Shown piece after piece: positions 21,731 through 34,060 of a stretch of 64,000 nucleotides of DNA. The position numbers were made by a program, and so were the translations under genes. Source of the DNA: an uncultured delta proteobacterium. Lineage in GTDB: Bacteria; Desulfobacterota; Binatia; Binatales; Binataceae. The stretch is taken from the NCBI GenBank assembly GCA_963813785.1, contig CAWFAJ010000002.1:137815-201814 (forward strand), written 5' to 3'. Under the pieces are notes generated by a model. It did not search any database. It worked only from the letters and a program-made list of their open reading frames with translations, and was not told the DNA's origin. Each line of letters begins with the position of its first letter. The first letter of the stretch is position 1.

Positions 21731-23005
21731 ATGGGAGATGACCGATTGATGCCGAAGAAACCGCAAATGCTGGAAGGCTACCGGGTTCTGGATTTCACGC
21801 AATTCGTCGCAGGGCCGACCTGCACGCGAATCCTCGCTGAGATGGGCGCTGAAGTAATCAAGGTGGAACTCGCGCCTTACGGCGACCGCATCCGCTCCGA
21901 AGGGCTCAAGTCGCTCGCGCCTGAATTCAAGAAGTCGAGCCACAGCACCTACTATCTGCAGCACAACCACTCAAAGCTGAGCTTTGCGATCGATCTCAAA
22001 AAGCCCGGAGCGCGCGAGATCGTGATGTCGATGATTCCGCAGGTCGACGTGGTAGTTGAAAATTTCGCGCCGCGGGTGATCGACCGGCTCGGATTTGCCT
22101 ACAAGGACATCAAGGCAGTCAATCCGAAAATCATCATGTGCTCGATTTCGATGGCGGGGCAGACCGGACCGCTGTCGGTCAAGGCCGGCTACGATTTTAT
22201 CGGCCAGGCCTATGCGGGGATTACCGACGGCATCGGGCAGGCCGATGGGCCGCCCGCGCTGACGACAATGGCAATCGGTGACGTTTCAACCGGGGTCGCC
22301 GCCGCGATGGCTGTCGGCTTCGCGCTGTTGCATCGCGAGCGCACGGGAGAAGGCCAGTATCTCGACGCGTCGCTGCTGGATACCTACTTCCACATGCACG
22401 AGAAGACCGTGCCGATCGTGTCGTTGCGCGGCGACAAATTTCGACCGACGCGAACCGGTTCGATCCATCCCGACGGCGGCACCACCGGCATTTTTCATTT
22501 CCGTGGCGATCAATACATTCTGATTACATCGACGCCGCATCAATGGCCGCAGCTGGTGCGGGCGCTCGGGATGCCTGAATTGGCGGCCGACCCGCGCTTC
22601 AAGGATCCTCGCGGGCGGCGCGACAACAAGGAACAACTGAGAGACGTGATCGAGAAATGGCTCACACGCTTTCCGACCCGCGACGACGCGATCGCCGCGC
22701 TGGATGCTGAACGCGTGCCGTGTGCTCCGGTGCTGACGGTCAACGAAGCCATCAAGCATCCGCATCTCAACGAGCGCAAGACGGTTCGCTGGGTGGAGGA
22801 TCCGATTTTGGGCAAGGTGGCGATTCCGGGTGTGCCGGTGAAGTTTTCGGCATGGCCGGACCGGACAGAGGTGCGTTCGTCGAGACTGGGCGAGGACAAC
22901 GAGCGCATACTGCGCGAACTGCTAAAGATGCCGGCGGAGCGGATTGCCAAGCTCTACGCCGAAGGAATCCTGGTCCGCGATTCGACGCTCGAAAGGCAGG
23001 GGTGA
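21731..23005 (+). CDS. CaiB/BaiF family III CoA-transferase.
   Basis: 424 aa with family-III CoA-transferase hallmarks (YRVLDFTQFVAGPTCTRILAEMGAEVIKVE). Confidence 0.85.
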   Translation: MGDDRLMPKKPQMLEGYRVLDFTQFVAGPTCTRILAEMGAEVIKVELAPYGDRIRSEGLKSLAPEFKKSSHSTYYLQHNHSKLSFAIDLKKPGAREIVMSMIPQVDVVVENFAPRVIDRLGFAYKDIKAVNPKIIMCSISMAGQTGPLSVKAGYDFIGQAYAGITDGIGQADGPPALTTMAIGDVSTGVAAAMAVGFALLHRERTGEGQYLDASLLDTYFHMHEKTVPIVSLRGDKFRPTRTGSIHPDGGTTGIFHFRGDQYILITSTPHQWPQLVRALGMPELAADPRFKDPRGRRDNKEQLRDVIEKWLTRFPTRDDAIAALDAERVPCAPVLTVNEAIKHPHLNERKTVRWVEDPILGKVAIPGVPVKFSAWPDRTEVRSSRLGEDNERILRELLKMPAERIAKLYAEGILVRDSTLERQG

Positions 23006-23140
23006 CCGCAGGGGTGACCCCTGCACCCGGTATTAAGGCCGCGCTCCGGTGGCGGCGCGCGGCCCGTGCCGCGGGTGCACGGTGTCTTAATACTGGCCAG
23101 CCGTGCCAACGGTCAGGAGTGACCCGTGCACCTTAGCGTG
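23003..23140. repeat. REP/MITE-like palindromic element, copy 2, inverted relative to copy 1.
   Basis: GGGGTGACCGCAGGGGTGACCCCTGCACCC ... CTTAATACTGGCCAGCCGTGCCAACGG ... GAGTGACCCGTGCACC. The internal 28-mer is the reverse complement of 7809-7836. Confidence 0.6.
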
Positions 23141-23206
23141 CAGGCATGTCGGTCAGCAGCCCGCATTCGAGCGGCGGCGTAAGGATAGTTGCGGCGCGCT
23201 GGAAAG

Positions 23207-23683
23207 CCCTTTGGACTTAAAATTTTCAGTAGGGCAACCACCGTGCGGGTTCGAGTCCCGCCCCCGGCATTTGAGGGAGTTCGTCGCCGCCCTTTGTCAT
23301 TTCGCGGCTTTGCCCTTTCCCTTCATTTGAACCGTCTGCATCTCACTCGGTTCGAGGTTGTCGGAGATCGTCAGAGTTCCTGTGTACGACACCGCTTGGG
23401 TCGGCGCGAACTGTACCGCGACCTCGCAGAAGGTCTCGGTCTTCGGCACTCCTTTTCCGCCCGGCTGCAACTCAACGTCGGAGCACTGCGTCGAGACCGA
23501 AAACGGCGACGGCGCCGGCGTTCCACTCGCGCTTTCTATCTCGATCAGTATCGGCAGCGGATGATTGGTCTTCTTGATTTTGCCGGCGTTAGTCACTTTC
23601 ACCATCTTGATCTTCGATTGATTCACGGTGACGGTGCCGAAGTTCAGTTTTTTCGGAGAAACCTTGAGCTTGCCCGCGACCGC
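23207..23683. repeat. Direct repeat block A (about 475 bp, near-identical to 28207-28678). It contains a tRNA-like 3' fragment (23227-23269, GGGTTCGAGTCCCGCCCCCGGCA) and the 3' end of a surface-protein gene.
   Basis: The ORF-track proteins 23189..23791 and 28239..28841 are identical over more than 150 aa. A single SNP is visible (ctcggtcttc vs ctcgctcttc). Confidence 0.85.
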
Positions 23684-25300
23684 CGTTGGTGTCGCGGTTG
23701 GGGTTGCGGTGACAGTTGGTGTTGCCGTCGCAGTCGGTGTCGCGGTCTTGGTCGCCGTTGCGGTCGCGGATGCGGTCGGGGTCGCCGTTGATGATGCTGT
23801 CGCGGTCGGTGTTGCGCTGGCCGTTGACGTAGCGGTCTTGGTCGCCGTTGCAGTCGCGGATGGGGTCGGCGTCACCGATGCGGTCGCGGTGGCAGTCTTG
23901 GTTGCTGTGGCAGTGGCGGTCGCAGTTGGAGGTCGGGGTCGGTGTTGCGCTTTGAGTGCGTCGGCGTTGCATTGCTGAGGCTGTCGGAGTCGCCGTCGCG
24001 GTTGCAGTTACGGTCGCGGTGGGGGTGGCTGTTGCAGTTGCTTTGGGGACATTATAGCAACAGGCCTCTCTCACAGTCTGGCTTTCGGGCCCGCAATCTC
24101 GACTACTGGCGACGCATCTCCTTTGCTGCCCGAAGCGAATTCCATGATGCTGTCGTCGGGCTAGTTCGAGGCGATGTTTGTCACATATATGTTCTCTGCC
24201 GAATCAACCGCTATTCCAGAGGGCCAGTAGAGGCCTGTGTGTGGCCCACCTATGACGGCGCTCGGCGAGATATTGCCGGTCTGTAAGGCCGGAAACTCCA
24301 GTATTTCTTGGTTACTCAAAACGTACACAGTTCCGCTGCTACGAGCTGCCACCGCCATCGGACCGTTCAACTGGGTATTCGACCCTGCGATTGTCCTATC
24401 AGGGCTCCTCCGTCTAGCGTCGATATTCAGTGATCGCGTTGGCGTCACGGTTCGCGACGTACACGACCCCCGTCGCATCGATCGCGGCTCCAAAGCCTGA
24501 GAATCCAGTGCTCACCGTCGCGACAGGCGATGTGTTACGGCCTGTCCCGCGGCAAACTTCAAAAGATCGCAGGGGGATCGGGAATAGACAGTCCAGACGT
24601 TGTCGGAACTGTCCAAGACAATTCCGCGCGGGACGGCCAGTGACGTGTTCGGACCGAGATCGTTAGTGATGGCCCAATGTCGCCTGCCGAGTCTTTCGGA
24701 AACTCCAAGATAGACCTGGCGCCCCGGGTATGTCGGTTACGAAAATATTGCCATGGCTGTCCAAGGCAATTCCTCCGAGATTAATACAGAGGTTAGTGTA
24801 CAGCACAGCGATATACGCACTAGGTGACGCATCTACAGCACTACCCGGCAAACTTTGCTATACAGAGAGCCGAACGATCAGAGGACTGACAGGCAACGTA
24901 AACGTCGGATGACGCTGTGAGTGAGGGAAGTACACCGGTACCGTACAGGTGAAAGATATGCGGGCTGTACGGGGCGTCATCCGTAAACGTGAGGTAAGCG
25001 TTATAAAGCTGACCGCTGGAGGCTGAAAAGACACAGACATGGAGCAGCTTGCCACGGGGACGAGAGCTGCGACGGTGCAACGTCGTTGATAGAAAAGGCG
25101 GAGGGGTCCGCGCACACAGAGAGCAACTACGGCCACGTGAACATCAGCGTAGACACTGCTGTACACCACGACGGACACGGGAGCTGTAGGACTGCAGACA
25201 TCTTGCGAGCAGAAATAGAGGCTCGGAGGCAAGAATGAGAGCTGCGGGCAGGCTACCGTGGTGAAGCTCTGATAGCTGTCGCACGACAGCATCCCGCCGG
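23297..25300 (-). pseudogene. Degenerate remnant of an NHL-repeat surface-protein paralog. It has an intact C-terminal Ig-like domain plus a Thr/Pro/Ala linker, then fragmented NHL repeats (YVTNIASN, GNIFVTDIPG) in several frames.
   Basis: ORFs 23297..23875, 23589..24074, 24161..24493 and 24663..24851 are all fragments with homology to the 28293-31585 gene. GC declines progressively. Confidence 0.5.
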
Positions 25301-25502
25301 CATTCGCACATATCTAGAAATGGTACTCGGAATTGCAGGCAAGCCCGGTCAACGAATATGACACGGATACGGTGTTGTTGAACGGAGAGAGCGTGGCTAC
25401 AGTTCCTGTGGTAGTGCCGTAATACATAGAGAGTACGTAATAGAAGTTAACCGTCGACTGCGAGCCATTTGGATTAACGGTGCTGTTTAGTTGTACTAAG
25501 TT

Positions 25503-26080
25503 CTAGGTGATAGAGCTGGCAGGATATGTTACGACGGTTGCGGTGCAGGGCGGGGTAGTGAAGCTTTCATCGTCGTCGCAAAGCGTTCCGCCCCCATTAG
25601 TTGCACAAACTTCGAAATGGTACACTGTGTTGCACGAAGACCGCTGACAGATGTAGAGACGGTAATAGTCGTCGTGCAGACTGCAAAAGGACCTATGGTG
25701 CTCGTCGTGGTCCCATAAGCGGTGGTCTGGCCGTAATTGAAGTACACGGTAGTTTGCGAACCGTTCGGATTTACATCGCCACTTAGTCGCGCGCTGTTTT
25801 GCGTGACCAAATCTGTAGGTTTGGTGTAGACAACGGCTGAGGGCTGAGAGCAGGAAAGGGTAGAAAAACTCTGGTCGCCGTCGCAGGCTGTCCCACTTGC
25901 ATTCGTTGCACAAACGTCGAAGTGATACGTCGTGAAGCAGGTAAGAAGCGATAGAGGTGGCGGGGTAGATCGTTGTAGTGCCTACAGCGAAGGGTACGAT
26001 GGTGCGAGTAGAGCTGCCATAGGTCGTTGTCTGGCAGTAATAGAAGTAGACGGTGGTCTGTGACCCAAAGGGAAAACAGA
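25503..26080 (-). pseudogene. Degenerate tandem Ig/Fn3-like surface-protein repeats (motif VNPNGSQTTVYFNYGQTTAYGTTTST), lower GC and not in a continuous frame.
   Basis: Two tandem units of about 250 bp are visible in the DNA. ORF fragments 25529..25810 and 25503..25913. Confidence 0.4.
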
Positions 26081-26759
26081 GGAGAAAAATAGGGAGGCAT
26101 ATAGGATAAAAAAATAAGCTGAATATGAGGAGACAACTGGAAGAGGTAGGAAAGATAATAAGGTAAAAGACAGTACAACGCTAAGAGGGCTAAAAGTAGA
26201 GTTGTAGCTGAAGAGCAAGGTAGAGACAATGCTGAAGAGAGTAGAAGGCTGAAACGTTAGAGAAGTAGAAACTAAGGCTAAGAGAAAGAGTTGCTAAGGT
26301 ACAGATATAGGTATAGATAAAATCTACAGCACTAAAGAAGGATATGCTAAAAGAGGTTATAGACAGATAGGAGGAGAATGGATAGCTAAAGATCACTGTA
26401 TGAGGTGAGACAGAGACTAAGACCGGCTAGGGTGAGAAGATCACAGTTAGAGGGTAGAACGATAAGATGGGTAAGGAGAGTATAAAGTAAAGGTAAAGCT
26501 GTAAGAGGTCTGTAGGTAGGGATAGCTAAAAGACAAGCTACAGGGCAAAGCAACGCTGAGATCGTTGAATACATACTGAAGCTCAGTATCGGAGACGAAA
26601 GACAGTTTGCTCTGTTTGCTTGGGAAGGGGGTGCCTTCCGGATCGATGAAGGTGAGAGACGCAACATTCTGGAAGTTATACACATAGACGGTAAATAGCT
26701 GATCACTATTGGAGGCGGGTAAGATGAAGGTGAGATACTGGTGATAGAAGGGGTGGAGA

Positions 26760-28200
26760 TGATAGGGCTAGGTATCTATGACAAGAAGATTAAGATAAAA
26801 GAGAAAAGAGGAAAGATAGGATAATATAAATTGAGAGTAAAAAGAGATAGAAGAAGAATAAGAGAGATGGAAGAGAAAGAGATGGTGCTGGAAAAGAAGG
26901 CGATAGATACAGGCAATATGAGAGATGACAAAGAAGAGAGAGAGATAATGAGAAATAAAAAGATAGAGAAAAAAAAAGAAAAATGAAAGAAAAAGAGATA
27001 AGAAGGAAAGAAAGAAAGAGATAAAAAAAGTAAAATAAAATAAAGAAAAAAAAATAGAAAAAAATAAAAAAGAAAAATGAGAAAAATAAAAAAAAAAGAA
27101 AAAATAAAAGAGATAAAAAAAAATATATAGAAAAATAATAAGATAAGAAAAAAAAAAAAAAAATAAAAAAGAAAAAAAATGAATATAAATAAGAAAAAAA
27201 TAAGAAAATAAAATGAGATATAAATGAGAGAAAAAAAATATAAAGAAATATGAATGAGAAAAAAAATAAAATAGAGAAAAATAAATAAAAAAAATAAGAG
27301 ATAAAAAATAAATATAAAAAAAAAGATAAAAAGAAAAAAAAATGAGAAAGATAAAATAAGATAAGAAAGAAAAAATGAAAGAAAAATAATAAAAAAGAAT
27401 AAATGAAAAAAAAAAAAAAGAATTCACGCTAACGACAAATAAAAATAAGAAATAAAAAAAAAAAAAAAAAAAATAAAAGAAATAAAAAAAAAAAATAAAA
27501 AAAAAAAAAAAAAGAATAAATAAAAAAAAAAAGAAAAAAAAAAAAAAAATAAGATAAAAAAAAAAAAGAAAGAAAAAAAGAAAGAATAAGAACGATAAAA
27601 GAGAAAAATAAAAAAAAGAAAGAAAAAAAAAAAAAAAAGAAACAGAAGAAAAAAAGAAGAAAAAGAAGAAAAAAGAAAGAAAAAAAAAGAAAGACAGAAA
27701 AGAGAATGCAAAGAAGAAAGAAAGAAGAAAAAGAAAAAGAAGAAAAGAGAGAACACGAAAAAAAACGAAAGAAAAAAAAAAAAGAGAGAAAAAAAAAGAA
27801 AGAAAAGAAAAAAAAAAAAAAAAAAAAGAGAGACAGAAAAAAAAAAAGAAAGAAAGAAGAAAGAAAAACAGGAGAAGGAAAAAAGAAAAAGAAAGAAAAG
27901 AAAGAAGAAAAAAGAAAAAAGAAAAAAAAAAAGAAAAAAAAAGAAAAAGAAAAAAAAAAGAAAAAAGAGAGGAAAGAAAGAGAAAAAAGAGAGAAAGAGA
28001 GGGAGAAAGAAGAAAGAGAAGAGAAAGAAAAAAAGAAAAAAAAAAAAAAAAAAAGGAAAAAAAGAAAGAGAAGAAAAGAAAAAAGAAAGACAGAGAGGAA
28101 GAAGAAAGAAAAAGAAAAGCTAAAAACAAAAAGAGAAAAGAAACAAACAAAATAAAAGAAAAGAAGAAAAAAAAGCGGAAGAAAACGAGGAGTTATACGC
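26760..28200. repeat. About 1.44-kb A-rich homopurine (A/G) low-complexity tract on the + strand. The 27560-28190 segment is essentially pyrimidine-free. Preceded (about 25950-26760) by an A/G/T-rich zone of decaying complexity.
   Basis: Direct reading: long runs of a and g only, with rare c and sporadic t in the first half. The F/L/S-only ORF 26768..28150 (-) and the K/E/R-only ORF (+) are a trivial consequence of this composition. Confidence 0.9.
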
Positions 28201-28206
28201 AAAAAA

Positions 28207-28678
28207 AAGGACTTAAAATATTCAGTAGGGCAACCACCGTGCGGGTTCGAGTCCCGCCCCCGGCATTTGAGGGAGTTCGTCGCCGCCCTTTGTCATTTCG
28301 CGGCTTTGCCCTTTCCCTTCATTTGAACCGTCTGCATCTCACTCGGTTCGAGGTTGTCGGAGATCGTCAGAGTTCCTGTGTACGACACCGCTTGGGTCGG
28401 CGCGAACTGTACCGCGACCTCGCAGAAGGTCTCGCTCTTCGGCACTCCTTTTCCGCCCGGCTGCAACTCAACGTCGGAGCACTGCGTCGAGACCGAAAAC
28501 GGCGACGGCGCCGGCGTTCCACTCGCGCTTTCTATCTCGATCAGTATCGGCAGCGGATGATTGGTCTTCTTGATTTTGCCGGCGTTAGTCACTTTCACCA
28601 TCTTGATCTTCGATTGATTCACGGTGACGGTGCCGAAGTTCAGTTTTTTCGGAGAAACCTTGAGCTTGCCCGCGACCG
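28207..28678. repeat. Direct repeat block B (partner of 23207-23683), with the tRNA-like 3' fragment at 28223-28265.
   Basis: See block A. Confidence 0.85.
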
Positions 28679-31585
28679 GCGTTGGAGTCGCGGTCGGAGT
28701 AGCGGTGGCAGTTGGAGTTGCAGTCGCGGTTGCTGTGGCTGTCGCGGTTGCTGTGGCTGTCGCGCGTTGCCGACGCGGTTGGCGTCGCGGTCGCCGTTGA
28801 TCGATGCGGTCGCGGTCGGTGTTGCGCTGGCCGTTGAGTAGCGGTCTTGATCGCCTTGGGTCGCAGTCGGTGTCGCGGTCTGGTCGCCGTTGCGGTCGCG
28901 GATGCGGTCGGGGTCGCCGATGCGGTCGCGGTCGGTGTTGCGCTCGCCGTTGATGATGCCGTCGCAGTCGGTGTCGCGGTCTTGGTCGCCGTTGCAGTCG
29001 CGGATGCGGTCGCTGTCACCGTTGCCGATGCGGTCGCGGTCGGTGTTGCGCTCGCCGTTGACGTAGCGGTCTTGGTCGCCGTCGGCGTCGGAGTTGCCGT
29101 CTTGGTCGCAGTTGCCGACGCGGTTGGCGTCGGCGTGAGAGTGGCCGTGCTGGTGGCCGTCGGCGTCGCAGTGACGGTCGGGGTCGGGGTCGCTAGTGGC
29201 CTATCGTATTCGAGCACTCGGCTGTTGTTCTCATCGGCGACGTAGAGGTTGCCGCTGGTATCCACTGCAACCCCGGCGGTTGGGATAGGCTGTCGCCGCT
29301 CAGACCACCGTGGTTGGCGGTGCCCGTGGAGAAGCTGCCACCCTGCCCGAACACGCGTATCGGCGGTGGTGTCGGTCGATGAGCGGGACTGTTGTATTCG
29401 AGCACGCGGTTGTTGCCGTCGTCGGCGACGTAAAGGTTGCCGCTGGCGTCCACTGCTATCCCGCCGGGTGAGGATAGGCTGTCGGCGCTCAGCCCGCCGT
29501 TGTTGGCGGTGCCCGAGGCGAAGTTGCCGCCCTGCCCGAACACCGTATCAGCGGTCGTGTCGGTGGTGAGCGGGGTGTTGTATTCGAGCACGCGGTTGTT
29601 GACGTTGTCTGCCACGTAGAGGTTGCTGCTGGCGTCCACCGCAACCCCGGTGGGTGGAGAGGCTGTCGGCGCTCAGCCCGCCGTTGTTGCGGTCCCGAGA
29701 TGAAGCTGCCGCCCTGCCCGAATACGGTGTCGGCAGTGGTGCCGCTGGTGAGCGGGGTGTTGTATTCGAGCACGCGATTGTTGCCGTTGTCGGCTACGTA
29801 GAGGTTGCTGCTGGCGTCCACCGCAACCCCGGTTGGGAGAATTCAGACTATCTGCGCTCAGCCCGCCCTTGTTGGCAGTATTCGAGGTGAAGCTGCCGCC
29901 CTGCCCGAACACCCGATTGGCGCCCGCACCGACGCATGGGAGTGAACCGCAGCCGGCAAATGGGGTGTTGTATTCGAGCACGCGGCTGTTGTACTGGTCA
30001 GCTACGTAGAGGTTGCCGCTGGCTGTCCACTGCAACCCCTACTGGGAAGCATAGGTTGTTTGCGCTTGCGCTCGAGCCGTTGAATCGCAGTCGCCTGAGT
30101 GAAAGTCGGGCTGACCAATTACCAGGTCGGCCGCACCGCCGTTGGCGAAGGTGGTCACATCTTTGATAGCCGAGCACTCGGCTGTTATTGGTGTCCTCGA
30201 CGTAAAGGCGGTTCGGCGTCGTGCTCGCGTCAATCGCCACGGATTGGGGAGCGAAAAGGCCGCTGGCGTCGATAAAGTTTGCGCCATTGTGGGAAAAGTC
30301 GAGCTGCCCCAGCACTACATCGGCGGTGGTGTCGGTCGAAAGCGGGGTGTTGTATTCCAGCACTCGGACGTTGGGTCCGTCGGCCACGTAAAGGTTGCCG
30401 CTGGCGTCCACCGCAACCCCCACCGGATGGGACAGACTATTCGCACTCAGCCCGCCGTTGTTGGAGGTGTTCGAAGCGAAGCTGCCGCCCTGCCCGAATA
30501 CGGCATCGGCAGTGGTGCCGTTGATGAGCGGGGTGTTGTATTCGAGCACGCGGTTGTTGCCGTTGTCGGCGACATAGAGATTGCCGCTGGCGTCCACCGC
30601 AACCCCAGAGGGATAGCGATAGGCTGTTCGCGCTCAGCCCGCCCTGGTTGGGGGTACTCAAAGTGAAGTCGCCACCCTGCCCGAATACGGTATCGGCGGT
30701 GGTGCCTTTTGTGAGCGGGGTGTCGTATTCGAGCACGCGGTTGTTGGTTTCGTCGGCGACGTAGAGATTTCCGCTGGAGTCGAGTGCAACCTGTTCGGGA
30801 GAGCACAAGCTGTCGGCGCTCGTCCCGCCCTCGTCGCAGGTGCCCGTGGTGAAGTTGCCGCCCTGCCCGAACACCATATCGGCGGTGGTGTCGGTTGAAA
30901 GCGGGGTGTTGTATTCGAGGATGCGGTTGTTGCCGTTGTCGGCTATGTAGAGGTTGCCGCTGGCGTCCACCGCAAGCCCTGCGGGATGGGACAGGCTATC
31001 CGCACTCAGCCCGCCGTTGTTGGAGATGAGCGAAGTGAAACTCCCGGCTTGCCCGAACACCACATTGGCGGAGCCGCCGACACACGGAAATGAACCGCAT
31101 CCGGCGAATGGAGTATTGTATTCGAGCACGCGGTTGTTGCTCTGGTCAGCTACGTAGAGGTTGCCGCTGACGTCCACCGCAAGCCCGGCGGGTTGGGAGA
31201 GGCTTTCCGCACTCACGCCGCCGTTGTCCGAGGCGCCTGAGATGAAGTCGGGCTGTCCAATTACCAGGTCGGCGCCGCCGCCGTTGGTGAAGGTAGTTAC
31301 GTCCTTGTAGCCCAAGACCCGGTTGTTGGCGCCGTCGGCTACGTATAGGCGGTTCGGGGTCGTGCTCGTGTCAATCGCCAGGAATGCGAGACCGTTGAAA
31401 CCTTTGGCGTCGACCAGGTTTGCGATCTTGTGGGAAAAGTCGAACTGACCCAGCACCCGGTCGGCCGTGGTATCGCCCACAGCTCCCACGACCATCGCCG
31501 CGTACAGCGCGACGGTCAGCGTCCCGACTGCAAGACCCAGCACCCTGCGATTCGATGCCTTGGCGCGTACAACTCGGAAATTCAT
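28293..31585 (-). CDS. Very large secreted NHL-repeat (beta-propeller) protein. It has a Thr/Pro/Ala-rich linker and a C-terminal Ig-like (choice-of-anchor-D/ASH-like) domain. The frame is interrupted at least 5 times (near 29230, 29560, 29750, 30020 and 30520), so it is either a pseudogene or has repeat-induced assembly errors.
   Basis: Signal peptide MNFRVVRAKASNRRVLGLAVGTLTVALYA with a GGGAGG RBS. Repeats of about 61 aa (NNRVLEYNTPL.TDTTAD.VFGQGG.F....N.GGLSADSLS.P.G.AVDASGNLYVAD) with a 183-bp DNA period. Consecutive ORF-track fragments 30437..31585, 29998..30597, 29673..30035, 29489..29821, 29193..29639, 28585..29265 and 28293..28622. Confidence 0.7.
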
Positions 31586-32103
31586 CGGTCCTGCCTCCCG
31601 AACCGGGAATGGCCGCTAAATCAGCGCAAGCACGGTAAGCCGACACTAATCGCATGAAACCAGTCACAAGGCAAACCGGCGCCGCAGCGTGAGCCGCTTG
31701 GTTCAGCCAGAAAAAAGAGGGGGCCGGCCTTGTATACGCGTCGTCGGCCAACGCAGGCCGTTGCGCCTGCAAACCGACCTGTTAGGCCCTTTGACCAATC
31801 GGATGCCCTTCAAAACTTACACATAAACTTGCACATTTCCAGATGACTAAAGAATTAAAACCAATAATTTCATATGAGTTAAAGATAAACTTAAGGGACT
31901 TAAGACCGGGCGCGCACTTCGCATTTGCCCAATGCCCGGCGCCGGTGCTAATCCGATTCAGGATTGAAAATGGAAATTCCGGATGAATCAAGTTCAGAGA
32001 CTTATCCGGGTGAACTGCGCGTAGCTCTTAGTGCGCGATAGAGCGCCGCTGGACCGATGCGGCGCTGAGCAGGATCGATAATCGTGAAAGGACCGGACGC
32101 GCC

Positions 32104-33027
32104 GTGACATCGCTCGCGAGCGCATACACGCCATCGCCAGAGTGGAGCGCGTTTCGCGACTACCCCGGCAATCCGCTGATCGAACCGCACTGGCCCGAGT
32201 GGATCATCGCGGACCCGACGGTGCTTTCTCCGGAGGTGACGCCGGACGGGCGCTGGCACTTGTTCGCGAACGGGCTTAGGGGGATCTACCACTTCACGAG
32301 CGCGGACGGCTTGACCTGGACGCGCGGGAGCCACGCTCTGTTCGGCGGGATGCGGCCGTGCGTACGGCGCGTCGGCGACCGCTTTCTGCTCTTCTACGAG
32401 CACTACCTGAGCTTGCGCCGCTCGGTCGTGGAGCTGCGCACGTCAAGCGACCTGGTCTCGTGGAGCGCGCCCCGCATCGTTCTCGAGCCCTCGCTGGCGT
32501 GGGAGGGCCGAATGCCGGCGGCGACCGGCAACCCGTGCCTCGTCGAGGGGCGATCGGCCTTCATTCTGTACTACAGCGCCGCCGCGGTCTTCCTCAGGGA
32601 TTGCATGTTCATCGAGCCGCGTTACGTGGGCGTGGCCGAGGGCGACTCGCCGGAGGGGCCGTTTCGCAAGCGCGCGCAGCCGATCCTGTCGCCCTCGCGC
32701 GACGATCCGTATCGCAACCTCGGTGCGGGCGCGATCAAGGTCTTCCGCGACGGCGACGGCTTCGTGGGCCTCCAGAACGGGATCTACCGGGACGCCACGG
32801 GCGCGACCGGCTCGGCGATCCTGCTGCTGGCGTCGGCGGACGGCTTCGCATGGACGCAAGTGGATCCTGAGCCGATCATCAGGCCGGAAGGGAGCGGGTG
32901 GAAGCGCGCGTTCGTCTATCAGCTCGACGTCGCGCGCAGCGGCCGAGAGCTACGCCTTTACTACAACGCCCGGAGCGGCTGGTTCCTCGGCGCCGAGAGG
33001 ATCGGCGTGGCGATCGCGTCGACATAG
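32104..33027 (+). CDS. Five-bladed beta-propeller glycoside-hydrolase-like protein (GH43/GH130/DUF377-like).
   Basis: Motifs DPTVL, GRWHLFANG and YHFTSADGLTW suggest the GH43-like propeller superfamily. Assignment by memory only. Confidence 0.5.
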   Translation: MTSLASAYTPSPEWSAFRDYPGNPLIEPHWPEWIIADPTVLSPEVTPDGRWHLFANGLRGIYHFTSADGLTWTRGSHALFGGMRPCVRRVGDRFLLFYEHYLSLRRSVVELRTSSDLVSWSAPRIVLEPSLAWEGRMPAATGNPCLVEGRSAFILYYSAAAVFLRDCMFIEPRYVGVAEGDSPEGPFRKRAQPILSPSRDDPYRNLGAGAIKVFRDGDGFVGLQNGIYRDATGATGSAILLLASADGFAWTQVDPEPIIRPEGSGWKRAFVYQLDVARSGRELRLYYNARSGWFLGAERIGVAIAST

Positions 33028-33129
33028 TCGCGCTGCCCGGTCGCGGTCCGTAGCTGCGTCATCGGCCCATTTCGCGCCGGTAAGAGCTATGCGCAAGGAG
33101 TCCTAGTCCGCGATCCGACACTCGAAAGG

Positions 33130-33256
33130 CAGGGGTGACCCCTGCACCCAATGTTAAGACCGCCCGCCGTTGGCGGGCGCGGCATGAAGGAAGAATCACC
33201 TGCGCGGTGGGCGGCAGGGGCTGCAGCCCCTGCACCCGCAGTGAGAAGACGCGATG
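33130..33256. repeat. REP/MITE-like element, copy 3. Left hairpin GCAGGGGTGACCCCTGCACCC, right hairpin GGCAGGGGCTGCAGCCCCTGCACCCGCAGTGAGAAGACGCG.
   Basis: Perfect palindromes CAGGGGTGACCCCTG and CAGGGGCTGCAGCCCCTG. The right 40-mer recurs at 34018-34058. Confidence 0.6.
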
Positions 33257-33299
33257 GAAGAGTCGCGGGCGGGAAAGGGGCGCTAGAGGCGTTGAACTC

Positions 33300-33950
33300 C
33301 TAGAGGCGGACTTCGGTGAGGCCGCGGACGGAATTGCCGAGAAAAATGCGATCGGCCGACGCAAGGTCCGCCACCGTCAGCACGCATTCACGCGTGGGAA
33401 TCGCCTGACTATCGAGCATCCATTTTCGCAGCGTGCCGTCCAGCAGCCCGCATTCGAGCGGCGGCGTAAGGATAGCCGCACCGCGCTGAATAAACACGTT
33501 GGTGCGCGCGCCTTCGGTAACTTCGGCGCGTTCGTTGACGAAGATTACGTCGAAGCATCCGGTGCGCGCCGACCAGGTCCTAAGCTCGGAGTCGTACAAG
33601 GCGCGCCGGGTCGTCTTATGGCGCAAGATAGGATCCGCGCTCGAAACCGCAATGGCGGAAATCACCGCGCGTGGGATAGGTTCCTTGTGACCGGGTGGTT
33701 CGATTGGGGCAGCGGATACCGATAGCATACCGTCCGGCGCCAGTCTCAGTCGAATTTTCCAGAACGGCTCGGCGGACAGGTTACCAGCGGATCCTAGCAG
33801 GGTGCGGGTGACCTCGCCCAAGTCACACGGGAAACCCAAGCATCCCGCCGACGACGCGAGGCGCCGCAAATGGTATTGCAGGAGCATATAGCCGGACGAC
33901 CTCGTCCAGAGCATGCTTTCAATCAGGCTGAATTCCACGTCTGTGGCCAT
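33300..33950 (-). CDS. pabC: Aminodeoxychorismate lyase (class IV aminotransferase fold).
   Basis: 216-aa class-IV aminotransferase-like protein immediately downstream of the fused pabAB. Confidence 0.7.
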   Translation of the reverse strand: MATDVEFSLIESMLWTRSSGYMLLQYHLRRLASSAGCLGFPCDLGEVTRTLLGSAGNLSAEPFWKIRLRLAPDGMLSVSAAPIEPPGHKEPIPRAVISAIAVSSADPILRHKTTRRALYDSELRTWSARTGCFDVIFVNERAEVTEGARTNVFIQRGAAILTPPLECGLLDGTLRKWMLDSQAIPTRECVLTVADLASADRIFLGNSVRGLTEVRL

Positions 33951-34017: not shown

Positions 34018-34060
34018 GGGCAGGGGCTGCAGCCCCTGCACCCGCAGTGAGAAGACGCGA
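34018..34060. repeat. REP-like hairpin unit, copy 4 (GGCAGGGGCTGCAGCCCCTGCACCCGCAGTGAGAAGACGCG), a direct repeat of 33215-33256.
   Basis: 40/40 identity with the right arm of copy 3. Together they bracket pabC. Confidence 0.6.

Follow-up and report, generated by a model that had tools for sequence, protein, structure and literature searches.

The 64,000-nt stretch of DNA analysed here (the window; contig CAWFAJ010000002.1 of assembly GCA_963813785.1) comes from Candidatus Binatus, an uncultured soil bacterium, and contains two conserved, convergent genes with a long variable interval between them. On the left is a family III CoA-transferase gene (21749-23005, + strand), assigned from its translation and from the Pfam CoA_transf_3 match in the flanking locus L001. 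On the right is a gene for a pabC-like class IV aminotransferase (33300-33950, - strand; Pfam Aminotran_4, 2.6e-38). A preliminary description, made from the window sequence, had taken the DNA between them for one inserted island of about 10 kb, aberrant in composition and with a duplicated junction at its ends. Gene maps of eight syntenic relatives show that the interval is a recombination hot spot in Candidatus Binatus; the gap has probably been filled by ordinary kinds of mobile DNA, in three or more separate steps. From left to right, the window has one copy of a duplicated CoA-transferase/pabC junction (H), two islets with surface-protein genes (E1 and E2), a cassette with a GH43-like gene (X) and the second copy of H. 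The two copies of H are referred to below as scars.

L001, a 596-kb metagenome contig that was retrieved by an exact match to the pabC product, agrees with the window at 99.6-100% identity in both flanks. A CoA-transferase scan of species-representative genomes returned 80 loci, all from metagenome-assembled genomes (MAGs) of Candidatus Binatus or Binataceae, and the gene order MGDG-synthase-like, metallophosphatase, CoA-transferase, ..., pabC, pabB is kept in seven of the 80 and in L001. Locus L004 was dropped as an informative relative, its synteny being different and without bearing on the hot spot. A neighbour-joining tree built from five flanking genes (6 kb) has the topology (L037,((L013,L006),((L002,L005),(L001,window)))).

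Between CoA-transferase and pabC, L006 (Ca. Binatus soli UBA7539) has nothing but 47 bp from stop codon to stop codon, and is the empty site that the preliminary description had predicted. L005 has a GH43-like gene at this position, L002 has the same gene with a 512-bp internal deletion, and in L003 a HicB-like gene stands in place of its 5' part; this antitoxin gene lies at 7451-7741 of L003. In L013, the GH43-like gene is fused to the end of the CoA-transferase gene and is accompanied by a patatin gene, and in L037 the interval holds a hypothetical gene together with DUF2478 and BrkB genes. L001 and the window carry NHL genes besides the GH43-like gene. Both scars are present in L005, L002, L001 and the window, the right one only in L003, and none in L006, L013 and L037. 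Sites free of inserted DNA, as expected around a classical genomic island, are therefore available for each part: L006 is empty, L005 and L002 are without the islets, and L001 is without E1.

Alignment bears out the two repeats noted in the preliminary description, with coordinates differing by 1-2 nt at most. The CoA-transferase 3' end with the element following it, similar to repetitive extragenic palindromic (REP) sequences (22949-23063), has a second copy at 33082-33183 (85-91% identity), and a 58-nt piece of pabC (33431-33488) is repeated at 23144-23201 (86% identity), 35 nt of which are exact (23154-23188 = 33441-33475). Neither pattern was found in 100 dinucleotide-preserving shuffles of the window, with 3 mismatches tolerated. 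When the empty site was aligned with the left and right copies of four genomes, a unit of ~290 bp emerged. It begins within the CoA-transferase gene, whose last ~50 nt it includes, spans the 47-bp spacer and takes in ~190 nt from the 3' end of pabC. The left copy (+ strand) includes the functional CoA-transferase 3' end (22949-23007; 59 nt, 85% identity to 33082-33140) and a pabC pseudo-fragment (23144-23203) that corresponds to a part ~130-190 nt inside the pabC 3' end and is 100% identical to its ortholog in L005. The right copy (33082-33491, + strand) begins with a pseudo CoA-transferase 3' end (33082-33128), continues through REP insertions and runs along the functional pabC 3' end to the duplication boundary. 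The two copies have now diverged by 14-15%, and the scars are orthologous and common to the window, L001, L002 and L005, which form one clade.

The resulting order, with A for CoA-transferase, C for pabC and primes for pseudo-fragments, is full A, spacer, C', X, A', spacer, full C, and this is the order that a target duplication around an insert yields. The convergent junction was thus the insertion site and the scars are a direct duplication of it, as first proposed. Target direct repeats that flank an insert, with both target genes retained, are also what Campbell-type integration leaves behind; single-crossover integration of a circle and a replication template switch would both produce the order seen, and sequence alone chooses neither. 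Features of a transposon or insertion sequence were lacking: an inverted-repeat search found no terminal inverted repeats at the ends, Pfam scans of the longer ORF pieces and genes found no transposase domain, and the duplication amounts to ~290 bp. Comparison with 28 orthologous CoA-transferase 3' ends gave no donor lineage for the pseudo-fragment, none matching at more than 41/47 nt. At the functional CoA-transferase 3' end, L001 differs from the window at 3/47 positions and carries the variants of the pseudo-copy (L001 15930-15977 versus window 22949-22995), which suggests gene conversion between the scar copies.

The insert actually bracketed by H is cassette X (31906-33083, + strand), comprising a 200-bp leader and the GH43-like gene (32104-33027), which has a weak match to Pfam Glyco_hydro_43, under the family cut-off. 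The cassette is found in L005, L013, L001 and L202 (a contig introduced below), and is partly deleted in L002 and L003. Its L013 version is 91.6% identical. The flanking genes have diverged to a similar extent, which is what vertical descent would predict in the sister of L006. The GH43-like gene may therefore be ancestral, in which case the empty site of L006 would be a secondary clean deletion between H copies and the scars would mark an old rearrangement; direct repeats of ~290 bp would allow such precise excision. Against this, the outgroup L037 is without the cassette and has unrelated cargo, and L013 has no scars, its CoA-transferase/GH43 joint resembling a microhomology deletion; the duplication, moreover, still needs an earlier cassette-free junction, whichever the direction of change. 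The tree allows either direction, and we regard ancestry of the gene as a real possibility that falls short of gain of the cassette at an empty junction. A second duplication-insertion has occurred in the same hot spot in L005 (11700-12230), where a ~440-bp insert is flanked by a ~62-74-bp duplication of the GH43-like start region and contains a small open reading frame (ORF) using the start codon of the GH43-like gene. By eye, from its translation alone, this ORF resembles a glyoxalase/VOC-family protein.

In the left scar, two REP-like dispersed elements (23008-23063 and 23064-23143) stand where the original spacer and the final ~130 nt of the left pabC copy used to be; copies of the elements are found also at other places in L002, L004, L006 and L037. 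The first begins directly after ...CTCGAAAG in the window CoA-transferase (22995-23028) and gives the gene its final codons and stop (RQG, then stop). REP-free CoA-transferase genes in L006, L013 and L037 end in ...SNGP, ...SKGS or ...SKAP, each followed by the stop codon. The right scar has REP insertions at 33129-33183 and 33213-33254 that are later than the duplication. In L005 and L002, the right scar keeps a REP-free spacer like that of the empty site in L006, so that neither the original junction nor the original duplication had a REP. The preliminary description had placed a REP in the ancestral junction, which the REP-free pseudo-copy of L005 and L002 contradicts. The REP of the functional gene recurs at the matching position in the pseudo-copy of the window and L003, and not in that of L005 or L002; the identical position in both scar copies points to targeted insertion or to conversion between the copies. 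The pabC gene is itself flanked by identical 42-nt REP-like elements in direct orientation (33213-33254 and 34019-34060), both containing the 20-nt palindrome GCAGGGGCTGCAGCCCCTGC, and these are the only 2 exact-type copies in the 64-kb window.

The two islets lie between the left scar and cassette X and are delimited by attachment (att) sites. Islet E1 (23214-28209, - strand) contains a large Ig/fn3/NHL surface-protein gene and a PGAP1/DUF676-like lipase gene; its true content is known from L202, the window being reliable over just ~23214-24000. It opens with attL (23213-23269, + strand), made up of the core GACTTAAAA (23214-23222) and, after it, the 3' portion of a tRNA-Leu(UAA) gene from anticodon loop to acceptor end, partly decayed. 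An internal att site (28209-28265, + strand; core 28210-28218) leads into the tRNA-Leu 3' part of E2. The E2 gene (28293-31585, - strand) encodes an NHL-repeat beta-propeller surface protein (Pfam NHL, 1e-28 to 1e-38) that has a Thr/Pro linker and ends in a C-terminal Ig domain. The array closes with attR (31815-31905, + strand), where the E2 att arm with its ACTTACACA and ACTTGCACA repeats is followed by the core GACTTAAGA (31897-31905). The internal att also opens the second copy (28209-28901) of a 690-bp direct repeat whose first copy lies at 23213-23889; identity between the two is 93% over the whole length and ~99.6% (two differences) in the first ~470 nt. In E1, this repeat contains an intact ORF for the C-terminal ASH/HYDIN-type Ig domain (23297-23875). 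The whole interval thus starts with the left flank, core, tRNA part and E1, continues with arm, core, tRNA part and E2, and closes with arm, core and right flank. Two elements that were both opened at an attP composed of arm, core and tRNA part, and that integrated in tandem, would be expected to leave this layout. The internal junction is better preserved in L202, with E1 arm, core and tRNA part in succession.

The unoccupied site is seen in L005 and L002, where the left scar runs directly into the counterpart of window ~31906 and the sequence is GCTGGAAAGCCCCTTG-CACTCAAAA-CCGGGCTCGCACTTCG. At the left end of the array, the window has the L005/L002 left flank GCTGGAAAGCCCCTTG, the core GACTTAAAA and the tRNA 3' part; at the right end, it has the AT-rich arm, the core GACTTAAGA and then the L005/L002 right flank CCGGGCTCGCACTTCG, with zero flanking bases lost and zero gained. 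The empty site CACTCAAAA matches the core GACTTAAAA at 7/9 positions (counted by eye). ARAGORN found no whole tRNA in the interval, and Rfam gave a weak, sub-threshold type-II (tRNA-Sec-like) match to the tRNA part. An identity as tRNA-Sec was set aside, comparison with tRNA genes in metagenomes showing the fragment to be tRNA-Leu(UAA): a metagenome scan with its last 23 nt found more than 100 tRNA-Leu(UAA) genes with the same 3' end. Several partial tRNA-Leu copies in metagenome contigs have the identical anticodon-loop breakpoint, with non-tRNA sequence before it. The E1 arm, as read from L202, aligns with the E2 arm, and paired ACTTRCACA motifs lie ~55 nt from the core in both. The paired motif occurs seven times in 2.2 Mb, always at att arms, namely those of E1 and E2 (window, L001 and L202) and those beside the partial tRNA-Leu copies of L095, L123 and L183.

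The same att family occurs elsewhere. Two peat metagenome contigs, L201 and L137, end in a partial tRNA-Leu att junction (AATAAAGCCAAT... plus core) that matches the window. L201 carries genes for a relaxase, a type IV coupling protein, HipA and an Abi protein, and L137 a relaxase gene; the paired ACTTRCACA arm was not detected in either, its detections other than at E1 and E2 being those in L095, L123 and L183. From their gene content and ends, L201 and L137 would seem to belong to a family of conjugative elements with tRNA-Leu(UAA) as target, the integrase end lying outside the sequence read. In L095 (345-4953), a full tRNA-Leu(UAA) gene is followed by 4.4 kb of cargo (M23 peptidase, alpha/beta hydrolase and DUF4156, with no integrase) and then by an arm like those of the window islets and a partial tRNA copy.

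For the islet contents, NHL matches precomputed for L202 were combined with direct Pfam scans of window and L001 pieces; direct scanning did not extend to the small L202 ORFs (69-118 aa). Among the longer ORF pieces of this interval in the window and all called genes of >200 aa in the L202 copy (not every ORF was scanned), Pfam matches were confined to surface-protein, lipase and GH43-like families, with no recombinase or transposase. The statement in the preliminary description that no integrase or transposase is present thus holds for the island genes examined, and misses the att remnants of an integrase-dependent element family. The E1 lipase has no close relative beyond L202; the nearest, in L206 (8562-11236), is 64% identical over 41% of the length. 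That gene follows a Kelch beta-propeller gene and adjoins a prophage-like region with ERF, YqaJ and GH19 genes. The ~100-aa C-terminal ASH/HYDIN-type Ig domain occurs as a separate small ORF at unrelated Binatus loci (L203, L204 and L205), always after a Thr/Pro-rich repeat region and without tRNA fragments, as a multi-copy surface-protein family.

Much of E1 cannot be taken at face value in the window. From 24000 to 28208 (+ strand), bases turn progressively into A, first C>A, then T>A and then G>A, with some deletions, and the change ends abruptly at 28208, where the 690-bp repeat starts. The true sequence is available from L202, a 9.8-kb contig from another sample that was found through a 110-aa ORF (24161-24493; 97% identical protein) and is colinear with window 23868-33254 in the order E1, att, E2, GH43 and pseudo-CoA-transferase. 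In place of the ORF fragments and A/G runs of the window, L202 has a 305-aa PGAP1/DUF676-like lipase gene, together with a surface-protein gene that has Ig/fn3 domains and is read as a 751-aa ORF and further ORFs continuing it. In the window, the counterparts of these continuation ORFs have NHL repeats. Differences between the two in E1 are almost solely C>A and T>A on the + strand, with very few indels, and C>A on that strand makes stop codons on the coding strand, which explains the broken E1 ORFs of the window. Per 200 nt, C>A and T>A differences number ~4 at 24200, 9-14 at 24800-25900 and 36-50 at 26000-26400. Base counts along the tract show C going first and then T, until G is down to 6-25% and A stands at ~80%. 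In E2 and the GH43 cassette, by contrast, the window and L202 differ by 1-10% with a balanced substitution spectrum. BLAST alignment to L202 is lost beyond 26920, and a global alignment under an any-base-to-A model gave a score of 734, against 586 +/- 17 for the shuffled true sequence (z ~8.7) and 493-553 for other real sequences.

The worst part of the stretch (~26760-28208) is the 'homopurine tract' that the preliminary description listed as cargo beside a surface-protein 'decayed paralog'; both are a corrupted rendering of genes that are intact in L202. A left paralog that is a noisy copy of the E2 NHL gene was tried and rejected: outside the 690 bp that the two have in common, neither nucleotide nor tblastx comparison showed colinearity, and the similarity was just of the generic NHL-repeat kind. 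We read the whole tract as an artefact of reads, basecalling or polishing, and not of evolution. That it is real DNA, such as a pseudogene in decay or under hypermutation, or a polypurine element with a structural role, is scarcely credible: it does belong to an assembly that was deposited and stays in register with the true gene, but it is strand-specific, grades smoothly to near-complete A and stops abruptly at a repeat boundary. In its flanks, identity to L001 is 99.6% and the substitution spectrum is balanced, no comparable tract occurs in 1.5 Mb of relatives, and it is absent from L001. A natural polypurine or H-DNA element is likewise contradicted by L202, which has ordinary coding sequence there, and by L001, which lacks the segment. 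We know of no in vivo mutational process that yields such a tract. A particular sequencing chemistry was tried as the source of the error spectrum and gave no convincing fit; the order C>A, T>A, G>A resembles, as a speculation, a polymerase putting A opposite lost bases. Long poly-A runs are found also at the start of L069 (1-136), a long-read MAG contig from the Binatus lineage and isolate series of the window, and are possibly the same kind of artefact.

Since L001 is nearly identical to the window and is without 23213-28208, and since the segment is bounded by the 690-bp repeat and ends in junk, it could be suspected of being a chimeric or duplicated misassembly with no genomic counterpart. 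L202, however, comes independently from another sample and has the same order, with long E1 ORFs (751 and 305 aa), and the two-islet state is on this ground real. The single NHL element of L001, furthermore, is a hybrid that agrees with the left window copy as far as ~23760 and, from ~28900 on, with the right one, as expected of deletion or collapse and not of an ancestral state. A misassembly is therefore very unlikely. The E2 NHL gene is frame-broken in all three assemblies (window, L001 and L202), and between the window and L001 its 186-nt repeats diverge by up to 15%, with 1-nt indels (window 28500-31500); pseudogene decay, repeat shuffling or consensus errors in a mixed population could be responsible.

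The aberrant composition given for the island in the preliminary description disappears once the true sequence is used. In the window as deposited, G+C falls to 0.15 at 27-28 kb with an extreme purine skew; with the true sequence, it is 0.563 in E1, 0.617 in E2 and 0.665 in cassette X, against 0.609 for the window (standard deviation 0.024, range 0.552-0.664). The anomaly is limited to the corrupted tract, and the deviant composition of a classical genomic island is not seen.

A single foreign island of ~10 kb, inserted between CoA-transferase and pabC with duplication of the junction, would explain why the scars bracket the whole interval in the window and why L006 is empty. We consider it highly improbable, as L005 and L002 have the scars with just the GH43-like cassette or its remnant, the NHL islets have precise boundaries and att ends of their own inside the scars, and L001 is without 5 kb of the interval. 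The scars therefore bracket an older cassette of ~1.2 kb, and the NHL and surface-protein genes came later, at another site and with att-type ends.

The locus is more probably a layered hot spot, in which a cassette with its duplication, invasion by REP-like elements and tandem att-bounded islets are overlain by an artefact. In the oldest layer, the ~1.2-kb GH43-like cassette would have entered the convergent junction with a direct target duplication of ~290 bp, leaving both genes intact and a pseudo-fragment of each beyond the insert. The route may have been Campbell-type integration, by homologous recombination, of a circle on which a copy of the junction was present, or else a template switch re-entering upstream, and the repeats could later delete the cassette cleanly by homologous recombination. 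REP-like elements would then have invaded both copies of H, one of them now supplying the CoA-transferase stop codon. In a third layer, E1 and E2 would have inserted in tandem by site-specific recombination at the pseudo-att site CACTCAAAA just inside the left scar. Each islet would follow one plan, a core, a tRNA-Leu(UAA) 3' half, one or two secreted or surface-protein genes and an AT-rich arm with ACTTRCACA repeats, and the integrase would be supplied in trans by an element of the same att family, which appears to include conjugative elements; the structure would amount to accretion of cis-mobilizable elements (CIMEs). The last layer would not be biology, a strand-specific error having turned most of E1 into A and so created the 'decayed paralog' and the 'homopurine tract'.

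Several observations weigh against this account. The window and the Binatus loci examined contain no att-family integrase and no intact tRNA-Leu(UAA), which is why we infer mobilisation in trans. Both att cores of the window are of the element type and the two bases specific to L005/L002 are in neither, which hides the crossover point. In L013 the cassette is present and scars are absent, L006 lacks cassette and scars alike, and the tree permits one gain plus a loss or two gains. The sequence leaves the mechanism of the ~290-bp duplication undecided; the event is reconstructed from its products. The single islet of L001 fits unequal recombination between the 690-bp repeats and assembly collapse alike. 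L202 is ~6% off the window in E2 and the cassette, and so represents a related strain and not the window's own genome, and the corruption could have arisen in a read, the basecaller or the polisher.

The first two of these points would also suit a move of the E1/E2 array out of a true tRNA-Leu locus through homologous or illegitimate recombination, with the resemblance of the target to the att core a coincidence; the presence of the C-terminal Ig-domain family at many loci without tRNA fragments agrees with it too. An integrase-free move nevertheless seems unlikely. Both ends fall exactly on the core, comparison with L005 and L002 shows no flanking base lost or gained, the left breakpoint is that of partial tRNA-Leu copies in unrelated elements, and the empty site CACTCAAAA matches the anticodon-loop core GACTTAAAA at seven of nine positions. 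We accordingly prefer the layered account, with site-specific recombination as the probable source of its third layer.

The most eye-catching feature of the region, a 2-kb homopurine tract in a genome of 60% G+C, is to be discarded as a sequence-quality artefact, and similar A-rich tracts in long-read MAG contigs merit equal suspicion. What remains is a clean natural series from empty site, through cassette with duplicated target, to tandem att-bounded islets, in which a 47-bp convergent junction turns into a multi-layer variable region in Binatota, a phylum without cultured members. The locus also presents, at a secondary site, what look like elements of a conjugative family that targets tRNA-Leu. 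It is built from known kinds of events and is a useful example that leaves current understanding unchallenged. More tentatively, integrase-free att-bounded islets, of which E1, E2 and the L095 islet would be examples, might form a widespread cassette-like system in uncultured soil bacteria, shuffled in trans by the integrases of conjugative elements. Such islets would each bring their own tRNA-Leu(UAA) 3' half, arms and one or two secreted or surface-protein genes, and could stack in tandem and use look-alike sites far from the tRNA gene.

Chromosomal hot spots of gene gain and loss between core genes are known from bacterial pangenomes. The present locus resembles them in that one core-gene pair flanks unrelated cargo in each species (a toxin-antitoxin component, a patatin, a glycosidase-like protein or surface proteins), and differs in that the convergent junction is just 47 bp when empty and has received nested insertions by at least two mechanisms. 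With Campbell-type integration or a template switch, cassette X shares its position between direct repeats of the target several hundred bp long, the intactness of both flanking genes and the possibility of clean loss; here, however, the duplication is just ~290 bp, its copies are 14-15% diverged, and no circular form or donor is known. REP/REPIN elements are palindromes dispersed in many intergenic copies, with a RAYT transposase associated. The REP-like sequences are similar to REP/REPIN elements as short, G+C-rich, hairpin-forming intergenic repeats with several copies in related genomes, and unlike them in having 2 exact-type copies in 64 kb and in giving, through one copy, a gene its stop codon. 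Genomic islands linked to tRNA genes by tyrosine recombinases likewise have direct repeats of a tRNA 3' part starting from the anticodon loop, AT-rich arms with repeated short motifs by the core, and secreted or surface-protein cargo, whereas E1 and E2 have no integrase gene, complete tRNA or compositional deviation (G+C 0.56-0.67 versus 0.61 for the window).

The comparison with CIMEs is instructive for the islets. A CIME keeps its att sites, no longer has the genes for its integration and transfer, and can take part in tandem accretion (PMC5704250); both are documented in Streptococcus thermophilus, for elements related to ICESt1/ICESt3 (Pavlovic 2004; Bellanger 2011; both as cited in PMC5704250). 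The array here differs in occupying a secondary, non-tRNA site with no adjoining intact tRNA gene, in having one or two genes per islet, and in its host, an uncultured member of the Binatota. The normal tRNA 3'-end target is replaced by the look-alike seen in L005 and L002, there is no complete tRNA-Leu at the site, and no partner integrative and conjugative element or integrase was found in the sequence searched. The likeness lies in att direct repeats with a shared core (23214-23222, 28210-28218 and 31897-31905), each islet having a tRNA-Leu part on one side and an arm on the other, in the lack of integrase, excisionase and transfer genes among the E1 and E2 genes scanned, in the tandem arrangement with an internal att, in the partial tRNA within the att and in an att that conjugative elements appear to share. 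By this comparison, E1 and E2 look like CIMEs whose target was a look-alike site in place of a tRNA gene, and whose entry would have been catalysed by the integrase of another element.

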